Assembly: GCA_005877225.1 (NCBI GenBank)
Contig: VBPK01000002.1
Location: 1 to 36,805, forward strand
Reading direction: 5' to 3'
From: Nitrososphaerota archaeon
GTDB taxonomy: Archaea; Thermoproteota; Nitrososphaeria; Nitrososphaerales; Gagatemarchaeaceae
Length of the DNA: 36,805 nt
Shown here one piece after another: positions 13,162 to 24,897 of the stretch. How positions within the stretch are numbered: position 1 is the first letter of the stretch; every line of letters begins with the position of its first letter. A program made the position numbers and the translations under genes. The notes under the pieces were generated by a model that was not told where the DNA came from, made no database searches, and worked only from the letters and a program-made list of their open reading frames with translations.

Positions 13162-14625
13162 CTACCTCGAAATGAGCCTAGCAGCCTCGTATGGTTCCGT
13201 GCGGGTCGCGACTCTCGCCGGCCACAGGGAGGCGAGAGTTCCCGTAAGCGCGGAGAGTGCAGTGGAGAGAGCCAGAAGCTCTGCGAGTTGTAGAGGAGGT
13301 GGGACGGAGAAAGGCAGGCCCACTGTCATGACTATCGAGGTCGAGAACCAGTTGAAGACGACCCAGGCCACCACGACGCCTAGGAGCCCCGATATCGTGG
13401 TTAGAGCAATCGTTTGAGCAATGATCAGCCTCGCTACGAACCGGCGAGGGGCTCCCACGGCTCTCATCAAACCTATCTCTCCCTTCCTCTCGTTTACCCC
13501 CAAGTAGGTCACGGCGCTGACCAAGAATAACGCGCCGAGCCAAACGAGGTTCCCCGAAATCGAAAAGGTGGAAAGAAGACCTGAGTACCTAATGCTAGCC
13601 GACTTGACAACGGAGTCGAGCGTGAAGGCATGAACATTGCCAATGGAGGACTGCACCCTTGTTGCGGCTGCGGTGGCACTCGTCCCGTCTTCAAGCTTCA
13701 CAAAGAAGGCGCTCGCCTGACCCGGCTGGAAGGAGAGGGGTGGTAGCCAGTAGTTGTAACCCTTCCCCGCGGACTGGGTAGCGCTGGCCGTCGTGTTCGT
13801 GGTCTGCCATGCCAACATGGCGTCCGCCGTGCTGAAAGAGATGAAAATCACATGGTCGATGAATGTCCCTGTCGCTGGTAACCTAGCCTGCACCGCGAGC
13901 TGGGTCCCATAGAACTTTCCCTGGTCCTGTAGAAGGTAGAAGGCGGGAACATTGAACCCAACCACCGCCCCGGTCCCGGTAAGAGGCTGGGTTACGTTCG
14001 CGGGAAGCCAGCTCTTGAGCATGAAATTGCTCTGAGGGTCGGCCGCAATCAAGTAGACCTTGTCTAGAGCGCCGCACCCGCCGGGACTGAATTCCGTGAG
14101 ATAAAGCTGCGGAGAAACCTCCTTGACCCCAGCCACATCGGAGAGAACGCTCACAAGACTACGGTTGATGTGCGTTGATTGCGGGGTGTAGACGAGAGTG
14201 TAGAATGGCTGTGGGGAGAGGCTGCTACCCTGCGGAAGCACTACCAGATCCGCCCCGAGCCTGTTCCTTACCTGATTTACGCTGTAGGCGGCGCCGCTCG
14301 TCAGGAGATTTGTCGCGAACAGCGCGCCAACAACGAGGGCTATTGCAGCTCCGGTTGCAAAAGTTCTCAAGAACCTTCCACTAGCCTCCCTACGTATGAG
14401 CGTCCTAATCCAGGGGGGGTTCTGCAGGTTCACGGGTGGCTTCCGCCACGATACCACAAGTACGAAGTACAATCCGATCAAGACTGCCAATCCTCCGATT
14501 CCTAGCTGGGCCTGCAGTAGAAATGGGTCCGTCGTCGAGAAGGCTGTCATTAACACAAGACCGGCGGCTCCGACCAGAAGACCCGCGGTGAGGGGCCCCC
14601 TCTTTAGGGTCATAAGGACGTTCAC
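13162..14625 (-). CDS. FtsX/MacB-type ABC transporter permease with extra N-terminal TM helices
   Basis: Large extracytoplasmic domain followed by the FtsX domain (NERKGEIGLMRAVGAPRRFVARLIIAQ) and three C-terminal TM helices. Confidence 0.8.
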   Translation of the reverse strand: MNVLMTLKRGPLTAGLLVGAAGLVLMTAFSTTDPFLLQAQLGIGGLAVLIGLYFVLVVSWRKPPVNLQNPPWIRTLIRREASGRFLRTFATGAAIALVVGALFATNLLTSGAAYSVNQVRNRLGADLVVLPQGSSLSPQPFYTLVYTPQSTHINRSLVSVLSDVAGVKEVSPQLYLTEFSPGGCGALDKVYLIAADPQSNFMLKSWLPANVTQPLTGTGAVVGFNVPAFYLLQDQGKFYGTQLAVQARLPATGTFIDHVIFISFSTADAMLAWQTTNTTASATQSAGKGYNYWLPPLSFQPGQASAFFVKLEDGTSATAAATRVQSSIGNVHAFTLDSVVKSASIRYSGLLSTFSISGNLVWLGALFLVSAVTYLGVNERKGEIGLMRAVGAPRRFVARLIIAQTIALTTISGLLGVVVAWVVFNWFSTSIVMTVGLPFSVPPPLQLAELLALSTALSALTGTLASLWPARVATRTEPYEAARLISR

Positions 14626-14770: not shown

Positions 14771-15907
14771 CTACTCGCCCTTCCTGATTGCTTCGTACGG
14801 ATCAAGCCTTGCGGCCAGCAGGACAGGATAGGCTGCCCCCGCAGCACCCATTCCAACTCCTGTAAGGACCGAGATCACACCCAGGATATTCACTTCGAGG
14901 AGCGAAAGCGGCAATAGGGTTATGCCGAAGGCGCCTTCTACGTAGTTCCCAGCCAGGATGAGGACCACCTCCCCGAGTGCGAGGCCAAGCACACCTCCTA
15001 AGAGAGCCACCAGTGCCGCTTCCATGAAGACAGATCGAAAGACAAACCCCTTGGTGGCGCCGAGGGAGCGCAACAGTCCCAGGTGGCGCCTCCTTTCGTT
15101 CACTGTCATCGAAAAGAGCAATGAGATTAAGATTATCACGGACCCCCCCATAACTCCTGAGACTAAGAGCTCGTACGTCGCGATGCCGGCGGTTTCGACC
15201 TTCGTCTGATGAGCGAGCTCTGCTGGTTGTACAGTCGTGTACGGCGGGAGCGAGGCCCTCAGTCGCGGGTCTATATCCTGGAGTGTTGCGCCTCGTGCCA
15301 GCTTAATCATTAGCCCCGACACCTCGCCGCTGGTGAACCGAGTCTGCGTCGAGCGGTTCTCTGCCACTTCGTAGGCCGTCTTTATGGGAAAGAAGACCGT
15401 ATTGTCAGCGCTGCTGTTGGTCGGTTCCAATATACCAACCACCTTCAGAGCTACTCCGCTCCAGCTGACCCGGTCCCCGGGTTTAAGCCCGGTTGCTGAA
15501 CCAGCCAGCGCGGTGTCTCTGTCCAGGTTCGTGTTCGCGCTTGGTGAGAGCCACGGCTGAATCGTGAAGTCCGTCTGAGGATCAAATGCGACGAGTCGCA
15601 ACGGTGAAGTAAAGCCCTCTGACGCGTTCAACGTGGTCACGTATAGTTGCGCGGAGACGGCATCGACACCGCTAATCCTCCGTATCTCCAGCTGCGCGCT
15701 CCCATTAAGGTACTGATTTGAAGGCGGAACCACAAAGATAGGCGAGGCGACTTTCAAGTTCGTGTATGCCCCCGGGGTAGCCGTGGGCAAGACCATCAGA
15801 TCTGCCCCAAAGCGAGCCGCGCCCAGGCTGGTACTTCGGCTTACACCAATCGCCAGTGCAGTCGTCGAGAAGACAAGACTGACGACGACGGCTACGGCCA
15901 CCGTCAT
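14771..15907 (-). CDS. FtsX/MacB-type ABC transporter permease (N-terminus may extend upstream to about 15976)
   Basis: FtsX domain NERRRHLGLLRSLGATKGFVFRSVFMEA. The in-frame region upstream of ATG 15907 encodes the family-typical LLVLRNLRASPIRSA stub but contains no ATG/GTG/TTG. Confidence 0.8.
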   Translation of the reverse strand: MTVAVAVVVSLVFSTTALAIGVSRSTSLGAARFGADLMVLPTATPGAYTNLKVASPIFVVPPSNQYLNGSAQLEIRRISGVDAVSAQLYVTTLNASEGFTSPLRLVAFDPQTDFTIQPWLSPSANTNLDRDTALAGSATGLKPGDRVSWSGVALKVVGILEPTNSSADNTVFFPIKTAYEVAENRSTQTRFTSGEVSGLMIKLARGATLQDIDPRLRASLPPYTTVQPAELAHQTKVETAGIATYELLVSGVMGGSVIILISLLFSMTVNERRRHLGLLRSLGATKGFVFRSVFMEAALVALLGGVLGLALGEVVLILAGNYVEGAFGITLLPLSLLEVNILGVISVLTGVGMGAAGAAYPVLLAARLDPYEAIRKGE

Positions 15908-18419: not shown

Positions 18420-20183
18420 TTGGTCGATTCTGAAGATATCGACATAGAAAACCTACAATTCTTCAATCGCAAGATTACTCGTCGCCAAGCCATTGCCAAA
18501 GCAACAGCCGCCGGAGCTGCCATTGGAGTTGCAATAGTAGCCGGGGCTGGTGGATACCTTGCGGGGACGTCAGTATCACCGGGCAAGTCGAGCACCACAA
18601 CCGTTACAACCACAGCGACCCAAGCCACGACTTCTGCGGCTGGCTTGGGTGCCACTCCTGCGGAGCGAGCCGTGAACGCCGTGAAGGCACTTAAGGCCGC
18701 AGGCAAGATTCCCGCCGGTGCAAAGATCAGGTTTCTCGAAGCCGCCTTCCGCGCGGGCAACATGACTCCGAAAGCGGGAGACGTGCGGACAGACCCCTAC
18801 ACAGGGAAGACAATACAGACCTCTATCAATATGCTGACGAAATGGGAAGACCTAACGGGGATACCTGTGGAGATCGATCTGCTCAATGACTTGCAGTTAT
18901 ACGACAAAGCTATCTCGGAGGCCACGACGAAGGCTGGAACATGGGACTTCCTGGGGCAGAGGATTGACTTCCTAGTCGACTTCATAAACGCAGGCGTTGC
19001 CCTAGATCTCACTGACTTCGAGACGAAATACCAGCCGGATATTAGAACTGGTAACTGCCAAGTGGTCCCTGTGTTTGCCCAAGGATACTACACCTCCGAT
19101 GGGAAGTACTGGGGATTCCCGGGTTGCGGGGACTGGTTCAGCTACTACAATCGGAGGGACTTGGTCACCAATCCCAAGTTGCAAAGCGCCTTCGAGACTC
19201 AATTCGGCTATCAGCTACCGGTGAATGGACCCGACACGTGGGATCAGGTCCTGGATATGGCCAGGTTCTTCGACGGCTACAAAGGTACGGAACAGACTCT
19301 CCCAGATGGGACGACCTCAACTCTCCGGGGAGCGTACTTCTTCAGGGATACGTGGTTCAGCAACATTGAATTCAGAATTCGCTTCCTCGAACTCGGAGGC
19401 CTTCTCTTCGATAGCAACAAGAACGTAACCCTGGACAACCAGATAACCAGGAAGGCGCTGCAGGACATGAAAGCCCTGGTGGCGTACCAGGCGAGAGACG
19501 CTTTCACATCTTCCTGGCCGACGATGTATCCAAACTATGCAAACAAGCAGGTCTTCCAGACCATCTCATGGGCTTCAGTCGCACAGTTCTCTGCAAGCGG
19601 TCCCGTAGGGGGACAGGGATTTGGCGTATACTTGACCCCGGGTTACAAGGTGGACAACAAGCTGATCCGAGTAACCGTGCTGTACGACCAGACATCCTAC
19701 ATCGTCGAGAAGTACGGGAAACTCACATCGGCAGTCCCCGACGTGCCGTACCTGTTTGGTCAGTGGCTGACCGACCCTGAGATCAGCACCCAAGAACTCG
19801 CGAATCCTGGCGCCATCTCGGACTACTTCAGGACGTGCCACGGAGTAGACGAAAGGATGATAGGGACCTTCTTTGCCGTGTGGCCACCCAATCCTGGTAT
19901 AGAACCCGGACGCCGAGGAGCGTCGGAAGCCTTCGATGTCCAGTTCCAAGCCTTGTGCGGCACCTGGCAGCTCGCCGGACTGCACGAGCTCCAGGACCTG
20001 TGGGGGACCCAGATGAATGCGTACTTCACGGATGTCCAAGACATAGATACAACGGTCAGGAAGATGCAGCAGGGCACGGATGGCGTCATGGACCGGCTCG
20101 GGCGAGATGCACAATATCAGCGATGGCAGTACGTAATGAAGACATTCCCGCCAGCACTCAAAACGCTTCACGGAATCAGTTGA
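18420..20183 (+). CDS. ABC transporter substrate-binding protein (family-1/CUT1-like) with Tat-like motif, membrane anchor and Thr-rich linker
   Basis: 587-aa ORF with a TTG start. N-terminus holds the twin-arginine motif TRRQAIAK, the hydrophobic stretch AAGAAIGVAIVAGAGGYLAG and the linker SSTTTVTTTATQATTSAAG. The remainder is a Trp/Tyr-rich periplasmic-binding-protein-like domain, directly upstream of two permease genes. Confidence 0.8.
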   Translation: MVDSEDIDIENLQFFNRKITRRQAIAKATAAGAAIGVAIVAGAGGYLAGTSVSPGKSSTTTVTTTATQATTSAAGLGATPAERAVNAVKALKAAGKIPAGAKIRFLEAAFRAGNMTPKAGDVRTDPYTGKTIQTSINMLTKWEDLTGIPVEIDLLNDLQLYDKAISEATTKAGTWDFLGQRIDFLVDFINAGVALDLTDFETKYQPDIRTGNCQVVPVFAQGYYTSDGKYWGFPGCGDWFSYYNRRDLVTNPKLQSAFETQFGYQLPVNGPDTWDQVLDMARFFDGYKGTEQTLPDGTTSTLRGAYFFRDTWFSNIEFRIRFLELGGLLFDSNKNVTLDNQITRKALQDMKALVAYQARDAFTSSWPTMYPNYANKQVFQTISWASVAQFSASGPVGGQGFGVYLTPGYKVDNKLIRVTVLYDQTSYIVEKYGKLTSAVPDVPYLFGQWLTDPEISTQELANPGAISDYFRTCHGVDERMIGTFFAVWPPNPGIEPGRRGASEAFDVQFQALCGTWQLAGLHELQDLWGTQMNAYFTDVQDIDTTVRKMQQGTDGVMDRLGRDAQYQRWQYVMKTFPPALKTLHGIS

Positions 20184-20263: not shown

Positions 20264-21169
20264 TTGGCTAACAAAGGTCGAACAAGCTGGCTGAGGCGGA
20301 AGTTCGGGTTTAACGTGTTGCTCGTTATGCCCCTTCAAGTGATCCTCAACTTCGTTCTCATCGTCCCATTTGCCCTGGCCATCTACTTGAGCTTGACCGA
20401 CTGGTCACCGATAACCGGACCGTGGTATGCTTCCCCAATAGTGGGAGCGCAGAACTACGTCTCCATACTGACGACGGAAAGGTTCCAGCAGGCGATCGTG
20501 AACACTCTCCTCATAGTGGGCGGCGCGGTCACCTTGGAGTTTGCTGTCGGATTGGTTCTTGCTCTCGCCTTCTTCTCCTGGGATTTTCGCGGCAAGGCGG
20601 TCTTCGCCTCAATCTTCCTCGTCCCTATGATGGTGATACCAGCAATCTCAGGTTTCACATTCCAGACGATTTTCTCTACTCAGGGGGCCATTAACGATGT
20701 GCTCAGCAGGGTCTCTGGAACGGTGGTGGCCGTCGATTGGTTGCACGTTCCGTGGAGCGCTTTATCGGCCGTCATCCTGGCCGACGCCTGGCAGTGGACA
20801 CCATTCATGTTCCTGCTGATGTACGCTGGCATGACGGCATTACCATCCGACCCGATCCGGGCGGCTAGGGTGATGGGCGCCTCCGAAAGGCAAATCTTTC
20901 TGAGGATAATGTTGCCAATGCTAAGACCCATCATAACGATAGCTCTGATAATCAGGAGCCTTGAGGCTTTCAAGATCTTCGATGTGCCATTTATCATGAC
21001 TCAGGGCGGCCCAGGGACCACGACCGAGACGATATCGATATTCCTCTATAAATTTGCGATTCAATTTGCAAGGGTCGCGTGGGCATCCGCCGGTGCGATA
21101 GTGATATTCATCGCCATTGTCATCGTGACTCTCTGGGCATCGAAGCCGCTGCTACCGAAGGCGGAGTGA
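20264..21169 (+). CDS. ABC importer permease, MalF/UgpA-like
   Basis: TTG start, 6 TM segments, EAA loop AARVMGASERQIFLRIMLPMLRP. Confidence 0.85.
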   Translation: MANKGRTSWLRRKFGFNVLLVMPLQVILNFVLIVPFALAIYLSLTDWSPITGPWYASPIVGAQNYVSILTTERFQQAIVNTLLIVGGAVTLEFAVGLVLALAFFSWDFRGKAVFASIFLVPMMVIPAISGFTFQTIFSTQGAINDVLSRVSGTVVAVDWLHVPWSALSAVILADAWQWTPFMFLLMYAGMTALPSDPIRAARVMGASERQIFLRIMLPMLRPIITIALIIRSLEAFKIFDVPFIMTQGGPGTTTETISIFLYKFAIQFARVAWASAGAIVIFIAIVIVTLWASKPLLPKAE

Positions 21170-22032
21170 GAAATTTGAAGGGTAAGAAGTTGATCTACTA
21201 CGCGACGATGCTTGTCGCGGCGCTCTTCGCACTGTTCCCCTTGTTCTGGCTTGTAACTAGTTCCCTGAAGAGCCCCTTCGAATGGTTCGCCCGACCGGTG
21301 GTGTGGATACCGGCACACCCGTCGCTCGACAGCTACGCGGCAATTTTTGGTTTGCCTGCTCCGAGCATAACGGTGGTGGGGGGAGTTCTCGTTCCTTCAT
21401 TCTACGCGTTCAGAAACAGCCTCCTCGCAGCGATCGGCACGACGGTGGCTGCGGTCGCCATAGGTTACATGGGGGCCTACAGCATATCTCGATACAAGAC
21501 TGGCGGCGCAGTGACCTACTTCTTCGTCTTGACCTCCCGCATGCTTCCCCCGGTGGCCGTAGTGATACCCCTGCTGGTTTTCTTTCAGACACTCTCGTTG
21601 GTTGACACCGTGGAAGGATTGGTCCTGATATACCTGGGTGTCAACGTCGCGTTTGTTATATGGATAGTGAGGGGGTTCATCGATGATGTTCCAAAAGAAG
21701 TTGAGGAGGCGGCGGCGTTGGATGGGGTCACCAAATGGTCCATTCCCTTTAGGATAATCCTGCCGTTAGTCAAGGGGGGCCTCGCTGCGTCGGCGCTCTT
21801 TGTCTTCATCTTGAGTTGGACTGAGTTCGGTATCGCCCTGATCTTAACTCAATACAATTCCACCACGATTCCTGTCCAGTTATTCAAGTACGAATTCGGT
21901 GGTGGACCCGCCCTCGGTCCTATGGCAGCACTCAGCACTTTGGCAGTGATACCAGTGATAATCTTGGGATACATTATCCAGAAACAACTGGTAAAAGGAC
22001 TCAGCATGGGTTCAATCAGAGGTAGACGCTGA
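21166..22032 (+). CDS. ABC importer permease, MalG/UgpE-like
   Basis: N-terminal LFPLFWLVTSSLK and EAA loop EEAAALDGVTKWSIPFRIILPLVKGG. GTG 21166 overlaps the upstream stop (GTGA). An alternative TTG at 21175 has GGAG 9 nt upstream. The longer ORF from 21079 is rejected. Confidence 0.85.
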   Translation: MRNLKGKKLIYYATMLVAALFALFPLFWLVTSSLKSPFEWFARPVVWIPAHPSLDSYAAIFGLPAPSITVVGGVLVPSFYAFRNSLLAAIGTTVAAVAIGYMGAYSISRYKTGGAVTYFFVLTSRMLPPVAVVIPLLVFFQTLSLVDTVEGLVLIYLGVNVAFVIWIVRGFIDDVPKEVEEAAALDGVTKWSIPFRIILPLVKGGLAASALFVFILSWTEFGIALILTQYNSTTIPVQLFKYEFGGGPALGPMAALSTLAVIPVIILGYIIQKQLVKGLSMGSIRGRR

Positions 22033-22080: not shown

Positions 22081-22614
22081 TTACCTCAGACTTCCACGGA
22101 GCCCTTCAATCGAAATTAGGTTGAGCTCGTGATTCGCCGTCCCCCCCTCCGCGAGCCTAATGACGAGTATCTTCTCCAAGAATCCAGGCGCCTTAACCGA
22201 GACAGTGTGCGAGGTAGGAGCCAACCCACCAATCTTAAACGCGCCATCGGGTGCCCGTTCCAATTCTTGTCCATCTACGCTAACGCTGGCAGCGGTGACC
22301 AGCCTATTTTTCTCGTCGAGGAGTCTGATGACAAGCGTTGCAGGAGAAGCTGGTTCGGAAAGTTCCGGGGGTATTGGTTCACCCTCCGCCGCGTAGAGGG
22401 CTACCGCGCTACCTGAGAAGACGGCGGTCCCTTCGATCGCTGTTATCCTTAGAAGCGTTCCTGCCTCGGGAGCATCAACCCGAATTGTCGTCTTTGCGGT
22501 TTCAACCTCGAACATGGCCTCCCCTTTCTGGAACCGCGCGCCTTCCTTCTTCATCCACCTCACGACCGTCCCGTTCCCGCCGATATCGTTCGGGACATGC
22601 ATGGTCTTAACCAA
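22081..22614 (-). CDS. Lipoyl/biotinyl-attachment-like domain fused to a PEGA/carboxypeptidase-regulatory-like beta-sandwich domain; function unknown
   Basis: The N-terminal ~80 aa match the E2 lipoyl-domain pattern (VPNDIGGNGTVVRWMKKEG....GEAMFEVETAKTTIRVDAPEAGTL). A Pro/Glu linker follows (GEPIPPELSEPASP). The C-terminal region VSVDGQEL...GLAPTSHTVSVKAPGF is PEGA-like. Start is TTG 22614 or ATG 22602. Confidence 0.7.
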   Translation of the reverse strand: MVKTMHVPNDIGGNGTVVRWMKKEGARFQKGEAMFEVETAKTTIRVDAPEAGTLLRITAIEGTAVFSGSAVALYAAEGEPIPPELSEPASPATLVIRLLDEKNRLVTAASVSVDGQELERAPDGAFKIGGLAPTSHTVSVKAPGFLEKILVIRLAEGGTANHELNLISIEGLRGSLR

Positions 22615-22667: not shown

Positions 22668-23771
22668 TCAGACGGGTCGCGTCGCGAGTGCTTGAAGGGT
22701 TTCCTTGTCGAAGAGATGTAGCTTGTTCTTGTCAAACTCCAGCCAGACTTTACCGCCAGGTTTCAGATCGGACCCTCCATGGATCAATGCCTTTACCAGG
22801 TTCTTGCCTAGATGGGCAGACAAGAGCGCCCTGGAACCCATTGGCTCCACGACGTACACGGTTGCCTCCATGCTTTCGTCACTCCGATTATCGAGGTGAA
22901 TCGAGATATTTTCTGGACGAATCCCGAGAGTCAGGTCAGATGGTCCCCCGTCACTGGTGGAGAGCGGCCGCGAATTAGTGACATCCAGGCTAAAGGACTC
23001 CTGAGCGAGTATCGTCCTACCATTCTTGACTTCACACCTGCATTCGATAAAATTCATTCTAGGCGAGCCCATAAAAGAAGCAACGAATTTGTCCTTTGGT
23101 CTCTCATAGATCGCGGACGGGGCGTCGACTTGCCTTATCATCCCTCCATTTAGGATCGCGATTCTCTCACCCATCGAAAAGGCCTCAAGCTGATCATGCG
23201 TTGTGTAGATGATCGTTTGACCGATCTCCCTCACCAGCCGTTTGAGCTCCGACCTCATGTTTGCCCTGATAAGGGCGTCGATGTTGGCCAGAGGTTGATC
23301 AAGCAGGTAAACCTTCGGCCTCCTTACTATTGCTCTTGCCAGCGCCAACCTTTGGAGTTCCCCGCCACTGTAGGTCCTTGGGTACCTGTCGAGGATATGG
23401 TCTATCTTCAATAGACGAGCGACTTCGTTGACCCGCTCAGTGATTTCGTTTTCCGGAACTTTTTTCTGACGAAGTGGAAATGCTATGTTTTTGAAACCAG
23501 TCTTATTTGGGTACAGTGCGAGATTTTCAAACACCATCGCCACGTCCCTATCCTTTGGCTCGAGATCGTTCACCAACTGTTCCCCGATATAGACCTCTCC
23601 TGAGTCGGGGACCTCCAGACCTGCAACGATCCTGAGTATTGTGGTAGCGCCCGCACCGGGAGGCCCAGCAAGGACGAAGAACTCCTTATCTCTCACCTCT
23701 AGGCTAATGTTATCGAGCACCGTCTTTGAGCCGTACCGCTTAGTGATATTCACGAGTCTTATGTTTGCCAA
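22668..23771 (-). CDS. ABC transporter ATP-binding protein, MalK/UgpC-like, with degenerate Walker A, Q-loop and Walker B (predicted non-hydrolytic)
   Basis: TTG start. Walker A GPPGAGAT lacks Lys. Q-loop is FENLALYP, signature YSGGELQR, Walker B LLDQP, and the H-loop TTHD is kept. C-terminal regulatory (TOBE-like) domain starts at FMGSPRMNF. Confidence 0.9.
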   Translation of the reverse strand: MANIRLVNITKRYGSKTVLDNISLEVRDKEFFVLAGPPGAGATTILRIVAGLEVPDSGEVYIGEQLVNDLEPKDRDVAMVFENLALYPNKTGFKNIAFPLRQKKVPENEITERVNEVARLLKIDHILDRYPRTYSGGELQRLALARAIVRRPKVYLLDQPLANIDALIRANMRSELKRLVREIGQTIIYTTHDQLEAFSMGERIAILNGGMIRQVDAPSAIYERPKDKFVASFMGSPRMNFIECRCEVKNGRTILAQESFSLDVTNSRPLSTSDGGPSDLTLGIRPENISIHLDNRSDESMEATVYVVEPMGSRALLSAHLGKNLVKALIHGGSDLKPGGKVWLEFDKNKLHLFDKETLQALATRPV

Positions 23772-23778
23772 AGTTGGG

Positions 23779-23785
23779 TCACCTC
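23779..23785 (-). promoter_or_regulatory. Shine-Dalgarno-like GAGGTGA 7 nt upstream of the TTG start at 23771
   Basis: Minus strand reads TGActGAGGTGAcccaactTTG, which suggests translational coupling of the two ATPase genes. Confidence 0.5.
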
Positions 23786-23787
23786 AG

Positions 23788-24897
23788 TCAAATTATCGCA
23801 GGCTCCTCGCCATTCTTACTGAATACGTGAGCATGATCTTCGTCAAATGTTACCGAGACCTTCTCGTTGACTTCAAAGCTGGACGTGGCGGGTACGGTGG
23901 CCTTCAGCATTAGGCCATCCACCTGGACGGAGACGATGTTCTCGTACCCGAGGGGTTCCGTCATAAAAACACTCCCACTCAGGTGCGACCCCCTGGGCTG
24001 AGTGGGGAGGTCGGAAAGACTAGTCACGTTCAGGTGCTCTGGCCGGATGCCTAAAACTAGTTCAGGGCTGTTTGCGAATTCAGTCAGCCTGTCCCGACCG
24101 CTCGTTAGATCCAGAGTAAATCTTTCATTTACAAGATACGCTCGTTCATCGCTGAGCTTCAGGCTGCAGTCGATGAAGTTCATCGACGGGCTACCGATGA
24201 AGTTTGCTACAAACTTGTTCTCGGGATGATTGTAGACAGTTTCAGGAGTGTCGTACTGTTGCAGTCTGCCGGCGCTCATGACGGCAATTCTGTCAGATAA
24301 TGTCAATGCCTCCAGCTGATCGTGAGTCACGAATATCGTTGTCTGCTCAACCTCCTTCTGAAGTCTCTTCAATTCTGTCCTCATTACATTTCTTGATTCA
24401 GCATCAAGGTTGCTCAGAGGTTCATCAAGGAGGAGGACCTTTGGCCGAATGATCAGGGTTCTTCCGATGGCGGTCTTTTGCATGTTTGTAAGAGAAAGCT
24501 TGCCAGCCTTCTCGTGAAGCACCTCCTTAATATCGAGAAATTCCGCCATTCGTTCGACCTCCCTCTTTATTTCCAGTTGTGGGGTGCCCCTGATCTTCAG
24601 CCCAAAGGCGAGATTGTCGAACGTGGTCATGTGCGTGAAGATGGCGTAGCTCTGAAAGACGAGACCTATCCCTCTGTCTTTTGAAGGTATGTCATTGATC
24701 CGCTGGTCGTCAAAGAAGATGTCGCCCGTGGTGGGTGTCTCGAGCCCCGAGAGACAGTTCAGCGTCGTTGTTTTCCCACATCCTGAAGGACCCAGGAGAC
24801 TGACAAATTCCTTGTCCTTGACATCTAGGTCTAGGTTCTGCACAGCAGTCAGTTTTCCGAATTGCTTGGTAAGACCCTTTATGATGACTTTCGTCAT
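23788..24897 (-). CDS. ABC transporter ATP-binding protein, MalK/UgpC-like, consensus catalytic motifs but degenerate ABC signature
   Basis: Walker A GPSGCGKT, Q-loop VFQSYAIF, Walker B LLLDEP and H-loop FVTHD are consensus. The signature position reads LSLTNMQK instead of LSGGQRQR. C-terminal domain starts at FIGSPSMNF. Confidence 0.9.
   Translation of the reverse strand: MTKVIIKGLTKQFGKLTAVQNLDLDVKDKEFVSLLGPSGCGKTTTLNCLSGLETPTTGDIFFDDQRINDIPSKDRGIGLVFQSYAIFTHMTTFDNLAFGLKIRGTPQLEIKREVERMAEFLDIKEVLHEKAGKLSLTNMQKTAIGRTLIIRPKVLLLDEPLSNLDAESRNVMRTELKRLQKEVEQTTIFVTHDQLEALTLSDRIAVMSAGRLQQYDTPETVYNHPENKFVANFIGSPSMNFIDCSLKLSDERAYLVNERFTLDLTSGRDRLTEFANSPELVLGIRPEHLNVTSLSDLPTQPRGSHLSGSVFMTEPLGYENIVSVQVDGLMLKATVPATSSFEVNEKVSVTFDEDHAHVFSKNGEEPAII

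Follow-up and report, generated by a model that had tools for sequence, protein, structure and literature searches.

Can a MalK-type importer be driven by two non-identical ATPase subunits that share only one working ATP site? The question is raised by two adjacent genes in a 36,805-nucleotide (nt) stretch of a Nitrososphaerota archaeon genome (contig VBPK01000002.1 of GenBank assembly GCA_005877225.1; the whole stretch is called the window hereafter), both of which encode MalK-type ATPases, here termed nucleotide-binding domain (NBD) subunits A and B. In the head-to-tail NBD dimer of MalK, each ATP site is composed of the Walker A and Walker B motifs, the Q-loop and the H-loop of one subunit and the signature motif of its partner. 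An initial annotation of the window had proposed that the substitutions in A and B all fall in the same composite site, so that the pair would be an obligate heterodimer with one consensus and one non-catalytic site. Gene adjacency, separate phylogenetic clades, purifying selection and the strict complementarity of the substitutions among relatives all support this proposal, and it is likely that A and B form an obligate heterodimer of a CUT1-like importer with one catalytic and one non-catalytic site.

Both open reading frames (ORFs), together with the motif and codon positions originally assigned to A and B, were reproduced in full by a codon-level check (Table 1). A, the product of the upstream gene of the tandem pair, carries the sole intact P-loop of the ATP-binding cassette (ABC) type within the window, as well as a consensus Q-loop (VFQSY), Walker B motif (LLLDEP), D-loop (SNLD) and H-loop (VTHD). 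Its signature, by contrast, is degenerate and reads LSLTNMQK, with S-L-T-N (TCT CTT ACA AAC) at the S-G-G-Q position, as the initial annotation had noted. HMMER alignment to the solved MalK-type ATPases 7x0q, 2d62 and 1v43 placed LSLTN on the LSGGQ column, and the full-length match to 1v43 (E = 2e-95) ran through every motif without a gap. A scored 103 bits against PF00005 (ABC_tran; cut-off 25), possesses the C-terminal domains OB_MalK (PF17912) and TOBE_2 (PF08402) with an LGIRPEH motif, and yielded an AlphaFold2 (AF2) model with a predicted local distance difference test score (pLDDT) of 89 and template modelling (TM) scores of 0.85-0.91 to MalK, SugC, MsmX, AlgS and PotA structures. Judged by its motifs, the S-L-T-N of A would be the signature half of a degenerate site.

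B, the product of the downstream gene, aligns from residue 1 with solved homologues and shows the reverse pattern. Its signature (YSGGELQR) is intact, and the final Glu of YSGGE is no defect because LSGGE is frequent among homologues whose motifs are otherwise all consensus. Three catalytic positions are substituted: Lys42 of Walker A is Ala (codon GCT at 23646..23648) in GPPGAGAT, Gln82 of the Q-loop is Glu in VFENL, and the catalytic Glu159 of Walker B is Gln (codon CAA at 23295..23297) in YLLDQP. The gapless HMMER alignment to the same three solved ATPases confirmed that each of these residues, like the retained YSGGE, lies on the expected column, the match to 7x0q (E = 3e-103) being full length and free of gaps through all motifs. 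The D-loop reads ANID and the H-loop TTHD. B scored 95 bits against PF00005 and likewise carries OB_MalK and TOBE_2, here with LGIRPEN. A and B are 38% identical, and their pairwise alignment is gapless not just over the first ~160 residues, as first reported, but up to residue ~295. They are separate ORFs in different frames, divided by a stop codon, a spacer and a ribosome-binding site of B's own; the shortness of this spacer (16 nt) and the GAGGTGA within it suggest that A and B are expressed together.

The complementarity of the two subunits extends well beyond the window. We extracted the motifs from every tandem pair with retrievable DNA and obtained 18 pairs in which one signature is degenerate, the variants including LSLTN, QSLTN, LSLPE, LSMSQ, LSLSD, MNQSE, LGLSE, LSIND, LSVND, LRLDE, LSLSA, LTPGE, LTAGE, CHPSE and LNPNQ. 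The signature-degenerate subunit retains Lys42, Gln82, Glu159 and His192 in all 18, its partner retains S-G-G in all 18, and the partner has at least one change at the four catalytic positions (K/Q/E/H) in 15. Genes of the A and B type are adjacent in every sequenced pair (the window, loci L001, L002, L081, L083, L085, L091-L095 and L097, and the more distant pairs). Of the 236 cluster representatives that two protein searches yielded, the signature alone is degenerate in 81, the catalytic residues alone are changed in 55, and 100 are free of either defect; none combines the two (Fisher p = 1.7e-12 for mutual exclusion of the two defects, a value that ignores phylogeny). Peptide-pattern scans of genome and metagenome contigs returned mostly unrelated ABC ATPases (26-36% identity), and only L001-L004, L090-L097, L100, L101 and L103 were informative. 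Pairs of this kind occur in numerous uncultured archaea and in some bacteria, and the taxa named in the sources include Thaumarchaeota, Bathyarchaeia, Pacearchaeota and [Eubacterium] cellulosolvens.

Arranged by the number of substitutions, the pairs form a graded series that runs from loss of the signature alone (L088, L173), through signature loss with Q→E in the Q-loop (L003, from a bacterium, L086 and L087) and the further change of E→Q in Walker B (L083, L085, L172), to the additional K→A in Walker A (the window, L002, L081, L092, L097). In other lineages the H-loop His is lost instead (H→P in L170 and L171, H→M in L101). Losses on the B side are thus recurrent, with two or more origins of E→Q, two of H→P and one each of H→M and K→A, and all independent catalytic losses are on the subunit that faces the degenerate signature. 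A neighbour-joining (NJ) tree placed a main A clade and a main B clade apart from the canonical single ATPases, and the separate and roughly congruent branching of these clades fits an old duplication followed by co-divergence of A and B. The A/B pairing is part of a sizeable, unannotated family with graded degeneration rather than a one-off.

Conservation among orthologues bears out the substitutions read from the window. In the 11 orthologues of A (67-100% identity), residues 135-138 vary only at position 137 (Thr, Ser or Ala), between the invariant Ser135, Leu136 and Asn138, such that the motif reads L/Q-S-L-(T/S/A)-N and both signature glycines are absent throughout. In the 15 orthologues of B (68-100% identity), Ala42 and Glu82 are present without exception and position 159 is Gln in 14 and Arg in one, while the remainder of the P-loop (G36, G39, G41, T43, T44) is invariant. 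The segment from V80 to K90 (VFENLALYPNK) is invariant in 23 B-type sequences (52-100% identity), and the A-loop Tyr/Phe13, Walker B Asp158 and His192 are invariant in the K→A clade. The B orthologues were assembled independently of one another and come from several public databases (NCBI, JGI, ENA and Logan), the closest genome record being the soil metagenome-assembled genome (MAG) 'Thaumarchaeota archaeon TA_13' (L001, 99% identity). Compared with ~90%-identical relatives, the ratio of non-synonymous to synonymous substitution rates (dN/dS) is 0.19-0.22 for A and ~0.10 for B, and dN of A equals dN of B at every level of divergence, showing that both subunits are under purifying selection. 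Apart from the presence of several 'inactivating' substitutions, nothing favours the view that B is a decaying duplicate, a pseudogene in the making, or that its substitutions are assembly or sequencing errors. The frame of B is intact, of full length and preceded by a ribosome-binding site, its dN/dS lies below that of A, the same substitutions recur in the 15 independently assembled orthologues, and by the codon check K→A requires at least two base changes; orthologue conservation and dN/dS effectively refute this explanation.

How, then, could such a pair work? By analogy with the established head-to-tail dimer of MalK, on which the assignment of motifs to sites rests, site 1 would consist of Lys42, Gln82, Glu159 and His192 of A and YSGGE of B; it would be complete and the sole site able to hydrolyse ATP. 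Site 2 would combine GPPGAGAT, Glu82 and Gln159 of B with LSLTN of A, and would be defective on both faces and unable to support hydrolysis. In an A2 dimer neither site would have a glycine-containing signature, and in a B2 dimer neither would have a Walker A Lys or a catalytic Glu; since both homodimers would be without a complete site, the heterodimer should be obligate. The importer would comprise A and B with the binding protein and permeases 1 and 2 (Table 1), and its motor would hydrolyse one ATP per cycle. In the E→Q relatives that retain the Lys, site 2 probably holds ATP without turnover, while in the thaumarchaeal lineage of the window, in which the Lys is lost, it would act as a fixed structural interface, nucleotide binding being probably weak or absent. 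We infer this dimer geometry, catalytic asymmetry and ATP stoichiometry from the observed motifs, conservation, adjacency, complementarity and purifying selection, and our best estimate of site 2 in this lineage is that of a mainly structural, non-catalytic interface. Some nucleotide may still bind at site 2, given the invariance of Thr43 and the P-loop glycines, of the A-loop Tyr/Phe, and of the Asp of Walker B and the His of the H-loop.

A realistic, if not a probable, alternative is that in the same heterodimer site 2 binds ATP, ADP or another nucleotide tightly without hydrolysing it and plays a regulatory or 'glue' role of the kind known from CFTR and TM287/288. The residues just listed, along with Thr44, would be available for such binding in the K→A clade; the invariance of the altered motifs themselves (GPPGAGAT, VFENLALYPNK and LSLTN) suggests that a defined site is being selected for, not lost to decay, and the Lys-retaining E→Q relatives L083, L085 and L172 resemble classic ATP-trapping E→Q mutants. 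From established knowledge of ABC ATPases, however, loss of the Lys and of both signature glycines removes the main phosphate contacts on both faces, and what is still conserved may reflect only the stability of the fold and the dimer interface. It is considerably harder to see B as a pseudo-ATPase regulator, acting for example through its OB/TOBE domains, with A being either homodimeric or paired with a canonical MalK-like ATPase from another locus. A regulatory function is known for the C-terminal domains of MalK-type proteins, which A and B both possess, and the rest of the genome lies outside our view, but an A2 dimer would carry LSLTN in both sites and A-type proteins never regain SGG (81/81). 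B-type proteins, in turn, always keep SGG and the D-loop Asp, which would be needed only if B completes the A site, each of the 18 pairs has a second MalK-type ATPase gene immediately next to the signature-degenerate one, and the equal dN of A and B likewise argues against a regulatory B. We consider this explanation improbable.

The initial annotation had also suggested that A and B may be shared by the four permease genes in the window, a view that gained no comparative support: synteny ties only the permease pair at 20264..22032 and the binding protein at 18420..20183 to A/B. That one A/B dimer serves both permease pairs, or that A and B each serve a different pair as homodimers, would be in keeping with the presence of a second BPD_transp_1 pair (Table 1) alongside which the window contains no ATPase or binding-protein gene, and with the 44% identity of one of its members (29382..30218) to permease 2. 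Yet relatives down to 54% identity have one permease pair and one binding protein beside A/B, and L081 (68%) keeps the cobW, M20 peptidase and amidohydrolase genes but carries MFS genes in place of the second pair. Moreover, both proteins of that pair are MalG/GlcU-like, the first of them (28317..29243) showing no similarity to the MalF-like permease 1, and separate homodimers would be without any complete site. Both forms of this explanation are very unlikely.

Several observations weigh against the heterodimer with a single catalytic site, or limit how far it can be generalized. The pair and cluster counts ignore shared ancestry. In the NJ tree, L085, L101 and L089/L171 fall outside the main A and B clades, and the A/B family may accordingly have several origins or have undergone gene conversion. 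In an Aenigmatarchaeota MAG (L004, 1129..3419), a tandem MalK-like pair has LSGGQ in both subunits and Q→E (VFETY) in both, so a Glu at the Q-loop position is probably compatible with activity in some lineages. Another tandem MalK-like pair (L176, 2097..4287) has H→P (ATPD) in both subunits, a symmetric loss of the 'switch' histidine, and is otherwise consensus. As these changes occur symmetrically alongside consensus signatures, we rejected Q→E and H→P as general markers of inactivation; each alone is a weak marker of a dead site, and while the Gln→Glu described in the initial annotation is indeed present in B, on its own it says little. The robust markers are absence of the Walker A Lys, absence of the catalytic Glu and absence of the signature glycines; the window shows each of these three, and each falls in site 2. 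For B, AF2 gave a poor model (pLDDT 68.5, and below 50 over the P-loop, the Q-loop and the region from Walker B to the H-loop). It was built on an alignment of only 23 sequences and was not used for interpretation; its low confidence most likely stems from the shallowness of that alignment; disorder was rejected as the cause given that the low-scoring segments are near-identical to canonical ATPases. Finally, our view is that of the window, and another partner ATPase may be encoded elsewhere in the genome. The H→P observation made at L176 also extends to P0034, P0057 and P0198.

Among known systems, the closest to A/B in sequence and fold are MalK2, SugC2, MsmX, GlcV and PotA, which have the same domain architecture (E values of 1e-95 to 1e-103 to solved structures). 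MalK-type importers share with the A/B system the LGIRPE (G[IV]RPE) motif, the MalF/MalG-like permeases and an SBP_bac_1-related binding protein. A and B nonetheless remain below the NCBIfam cut-offs for UgpC (346 and 369, respectively, against 432), MalK (325 and 307 against 568) and GlcV (279 and 302 against 450). CUT1 NBDs, for which the G[IV]RPE motif was defined, are described as a homodimer (PMC11519228), and the claim in the initial annotation that CUT1 importers normally use a homodimer is backed by this source and by plasmid operons. A tblastn search of plasmids with B retrieved, as its best matches, canonical one-ATPase CUT1 operons of Rhizobium and haloarchaea, and the control operons L174 and L175 have a single ATPase gene with all-consensus motifs; the plasmid matches inspected included no A/B pair from a model organism. 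Thus A/B has the OB_MalK and TOBE domains, the G[IV]RPE motif, the binding protein and the MalF/MalG-type permeases of CUT1 systems, but where those have one gene product that forms a homodimer with two consensus sites (PMC11519228), the window encodes two 38%-identical paralogues with complementary defects.

In this last respect A/B resembles the class of degenerate-site heterodimers, to which adjacent genes for non-identical NBDs and predicted complementary defects in the same composite site would assign it. The heterodimeric exporters (TM287/288, TmrAB, BmrCD, TAP1/2, CFTR and MsRv1273c/72c) also have one consensus and one degenerate composite site. They are type IV transporters, however, whose NBDs are fused to transmembrane domains and which operate without a binding protein, whereas A and B are separate soluble subunits of 367-369 amino acids (aa) of an importer, with C-terminal regulatory domains and without any transmembrane domain, let alone the fused six-helix exporter domain. 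In exporters such as TM287/288 and CFTR the Walker A Lys is retained and ATP is tightly bound by the degenerate site; in A/B the Lys is lost as well. The asymmetric Pdr5-type PDR exporters may offer a further parallel, their site being degenerate on both faces, without Walker A Lys, catalytic Glu or consensus signature of the partner; Pdr5 is a eukaryotic full-length exporter of the type V fold, homologous to A/B at the NBD only. OppDF and DppDF share with A/B the use of two distinct, adjacent ATPase genes for one binding-protein-dependent importer, but they belong to the PepT family, have two sites that are both regarded as consensus, and carry C-terminal extensions other than OB/TOBE. One study aligned the DppD and DppF proteins of E. 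coli with ATPases of the consensus-site as well as the degenerate-site kind (PMC12136057).

The exporter literature describes loss of the catalytic Glu in one NBD and a non-consensus signature in the other (PMC3971661), an asymmetry also described in PMC7544095 and PMC12038006, and reviews present the combination of a consensus and a degenerate site as a feature of exporters (PMC3971661; PMC7756269). The initial annotation had likewise located such co-variation in heterodimeric exporters, where it is indeed known, but it is not restricted to them: RbsA and NupO of B. subtilis, placed among type II importers in the study concerned, are reported to have one degenerate site, with a deviant signature and a second Walker A motif without Lys (PMC11466899). 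Unlike A/B, these are single fused polypeptides without OB/TOBE domains and belong to another importer family with another type of permease; the two NBDs in one polypeptide of ~500 aa that characterize CUT2-type ATPases are not found in A/B. A CUT2-type ATPase with the same kind of deviant signature (LPISK) is encoded at L035. Our full-text literature search, whose scope left out most subscription journals, found no description of a MalK/CUT1-type heterodimer with a degenerate site; the only importers for which it turned up a degenerate site were those with the fused RbsA and NupO.

Pending biochemistry, A/B would extend the degenerate-site heterodimer to type I, CUT1-like importers. A natural one-site importer, if it is one, bears on the question of whether binding-protein-dependent importers use one or two ATP per substrate, and the intermediates of the series, from pairs with signature loss alone to those that add Q→E, E→Q and K→A in turn, make the order and cost of the steps testable. 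More tentatively, and as a conjecture that we think is more apt to fail than to hold, A/B pairs could constitute a widespread but so far unrecognised class of type I, CUT1-like importers powered by one catalytic site, with a new role for the B motifs and a halved ATP cost. The family would then document, step by step, how the second of two potentially active sites came to be fully gutted. In the thaumarchaeal end-member, the invariant GPPGAGAT and VFENLALYPNK of B would be the motifs with a new role, the candidates being fixed asymmetric coupling to one permease or the sensing of a ligand other than ATP, and the halved ATP cost of uptake could be an adaptation of energy-limited archaea. Automatic annotation labels both genes 'multiple sugar transport ATP-binding protein', and therefore the stoichiometry and energetics deduced from metagenomes of Bathyarchaeia and heterotrophic Thaumarchaeota may be wrong for A/B systems.

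Table 1. Positions in the window of the A/B transporter genes, the ATP-site motifs of A and B, and neighbouring genes.
Feature	Position	Strand	Basis or remark
Probable substrate-binding protein, 587 aa	18420..20183	+	N-terminal RR motif, then hydrophobic membrane anchor and Thr-rich linker
Permease 1, MalF/GlcT-like, BPD_transp_1	20264..21169	+	Pfam; conserved beside the A/B pair
Permease 2, MalG/GlcU-like, BPD_transp_1	21079..22032	+	Pfam; best NCBIfam matches
177-aa protein, Biotin_lipoyl-like and CarboxypepD_reg-like domains	22081..22614	-	Directly downstream of B
NBD subunit B, 367 aa, TTG start	22668..23771	-	MalK-type ATPase; ORF listing, translation, Pfam
Walker B of B, YLLDQP	23292..23309	-	Codon-level check and HMMER alignment
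Signature of B, YSGGE, intact	23358..23372	-	Codon-level check and HMMER alignment
Q-loop of B, VFENL (Gln82→Glu)	23520..23534	-	Codon-level check and HMMER alignment
Walker A of B, GPPGAGAT	23643..23666	-	Codon-level check and HMMER alignment
A-B spacer, 16 nt	23772..23787	-	Shine-Dalgarno-like GAGGTGA 7 nt upstream of the TTG start of B
NBD subunit A, 369 aa	23788..24897	-	MalK-type ATPase; ORF listing, translation, Pfam, structure matches
Signature codons of A, S-L-T-N	24484..24495	-	At the S-G-G-Q position; codon-level check and HMMER alignment
Walker A of A, GPSGCGKT	24769..24792	-	Codon-level check
Amidohydrolase	24916..26373	-	Directly upstream of A, same strand
M20 peptidase	26412..27647	-	Upstream of A, same strand
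CobW/UreG-type GTPase	27685..28452	-	Upstream of A, same strand
Second BPD_transp_1 pair, first gene	28317..29243	+	MalG/GlcU-like
Second BPD_transp_1 pair, second gene	29382..30218	+	MalG/GlcU-like

The remaining parts of the transporter were assigned from their conservation beside the A/B pair. The 587-aa protein had no Pfam match in a profile search, but a full-length alignment with the SBP_bac_1 protein of L087 shows 30% identity (E = 2e-54). A protein of 574-585 aa adjoins two permease genes in L081 and L083, and in L085 a 543-aa protein is encoded directly upstream of A, with all five transporter genes in the same direction. In these three closer relatives, whose B proteins are 54-68% identical, the A-B pair is accompanied by the 543-585 aa homologue and two BPD_transp_1 permeases, and in the more distant relatives L087, L088, L089, L172 and L173 by a binding protein with SBP_bac_1. 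The NCBIfam matches of permeases 1 (GlcT/MalF) and 2 (GlcU/MalG) are below the equivalog cut-offs. Their listed ORFs overlap by 91 nt and the homologous genes in L081 do not, and the GTG start of permease 2 at 21079 is probably too far upstream. The same is probably true of the TTG start at 28317 in the second permease pair, which overlaps cobW by ~135 nt.

The genes that flank A and B are partly conserved as well. Only 18 nt separate the amidohydrolase stop codon from the start of A, and therefore A and B are likely to lie in an operon after the cobW, M20 peptidase and amidohydrolase genes, all three of which are also found near the pair in L081. The gene for the 177-aa protein follows B in L081 (9275..9859) and L082 too, and a Biotin_lipoyl protein is encoded near the binding-protein gene in L083 (13092..13433) and L084. 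In the lipoyl/biotinyl-like domain of the 177-aa protein, ETAKT replaces the usual ETDKA-type motif, and the protein is without an obvious signal peptide. The CobW/HypB/UreG-type GTPase gene lies beside genes of the amidohydrolase family (24916..26373 and 31971..32900, both on the minus strand), one of which has a weak match to the N-terminal domain of urease alpha, and the GTPase may help to insert metal into a metallo-amidohydrolase whose substrate is the imported compound. The amidohydrolase, M20 peptidase and deacetylase genes nearby also hint that the 587-aa binding protein may take up an amide or N-acylated compound. Genes of the URO-D family adjoin A/B-type transporters in the window (30282..31307, plus strand), L088 (8638..10520), L171 (2047..3731) and L173 (10119..11101), with a gene for a B12-binding protein beside them in L088 and L171, and A/B transporters may be linked to corrinoid-dependent methyl transfer or to demethylation of an imported compound. 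Directly downstream of the A/B pair of L170 (7360..9600) lies a RadA/Rad51 gene with an intein that contains a LAGLIDADG endonuclease domain. Elsewhere in the window, two FtsX/MacB-type permease genes (13162..14625 and 14771..15907, minus strand) stand without an ABC ATPase gene nearby.

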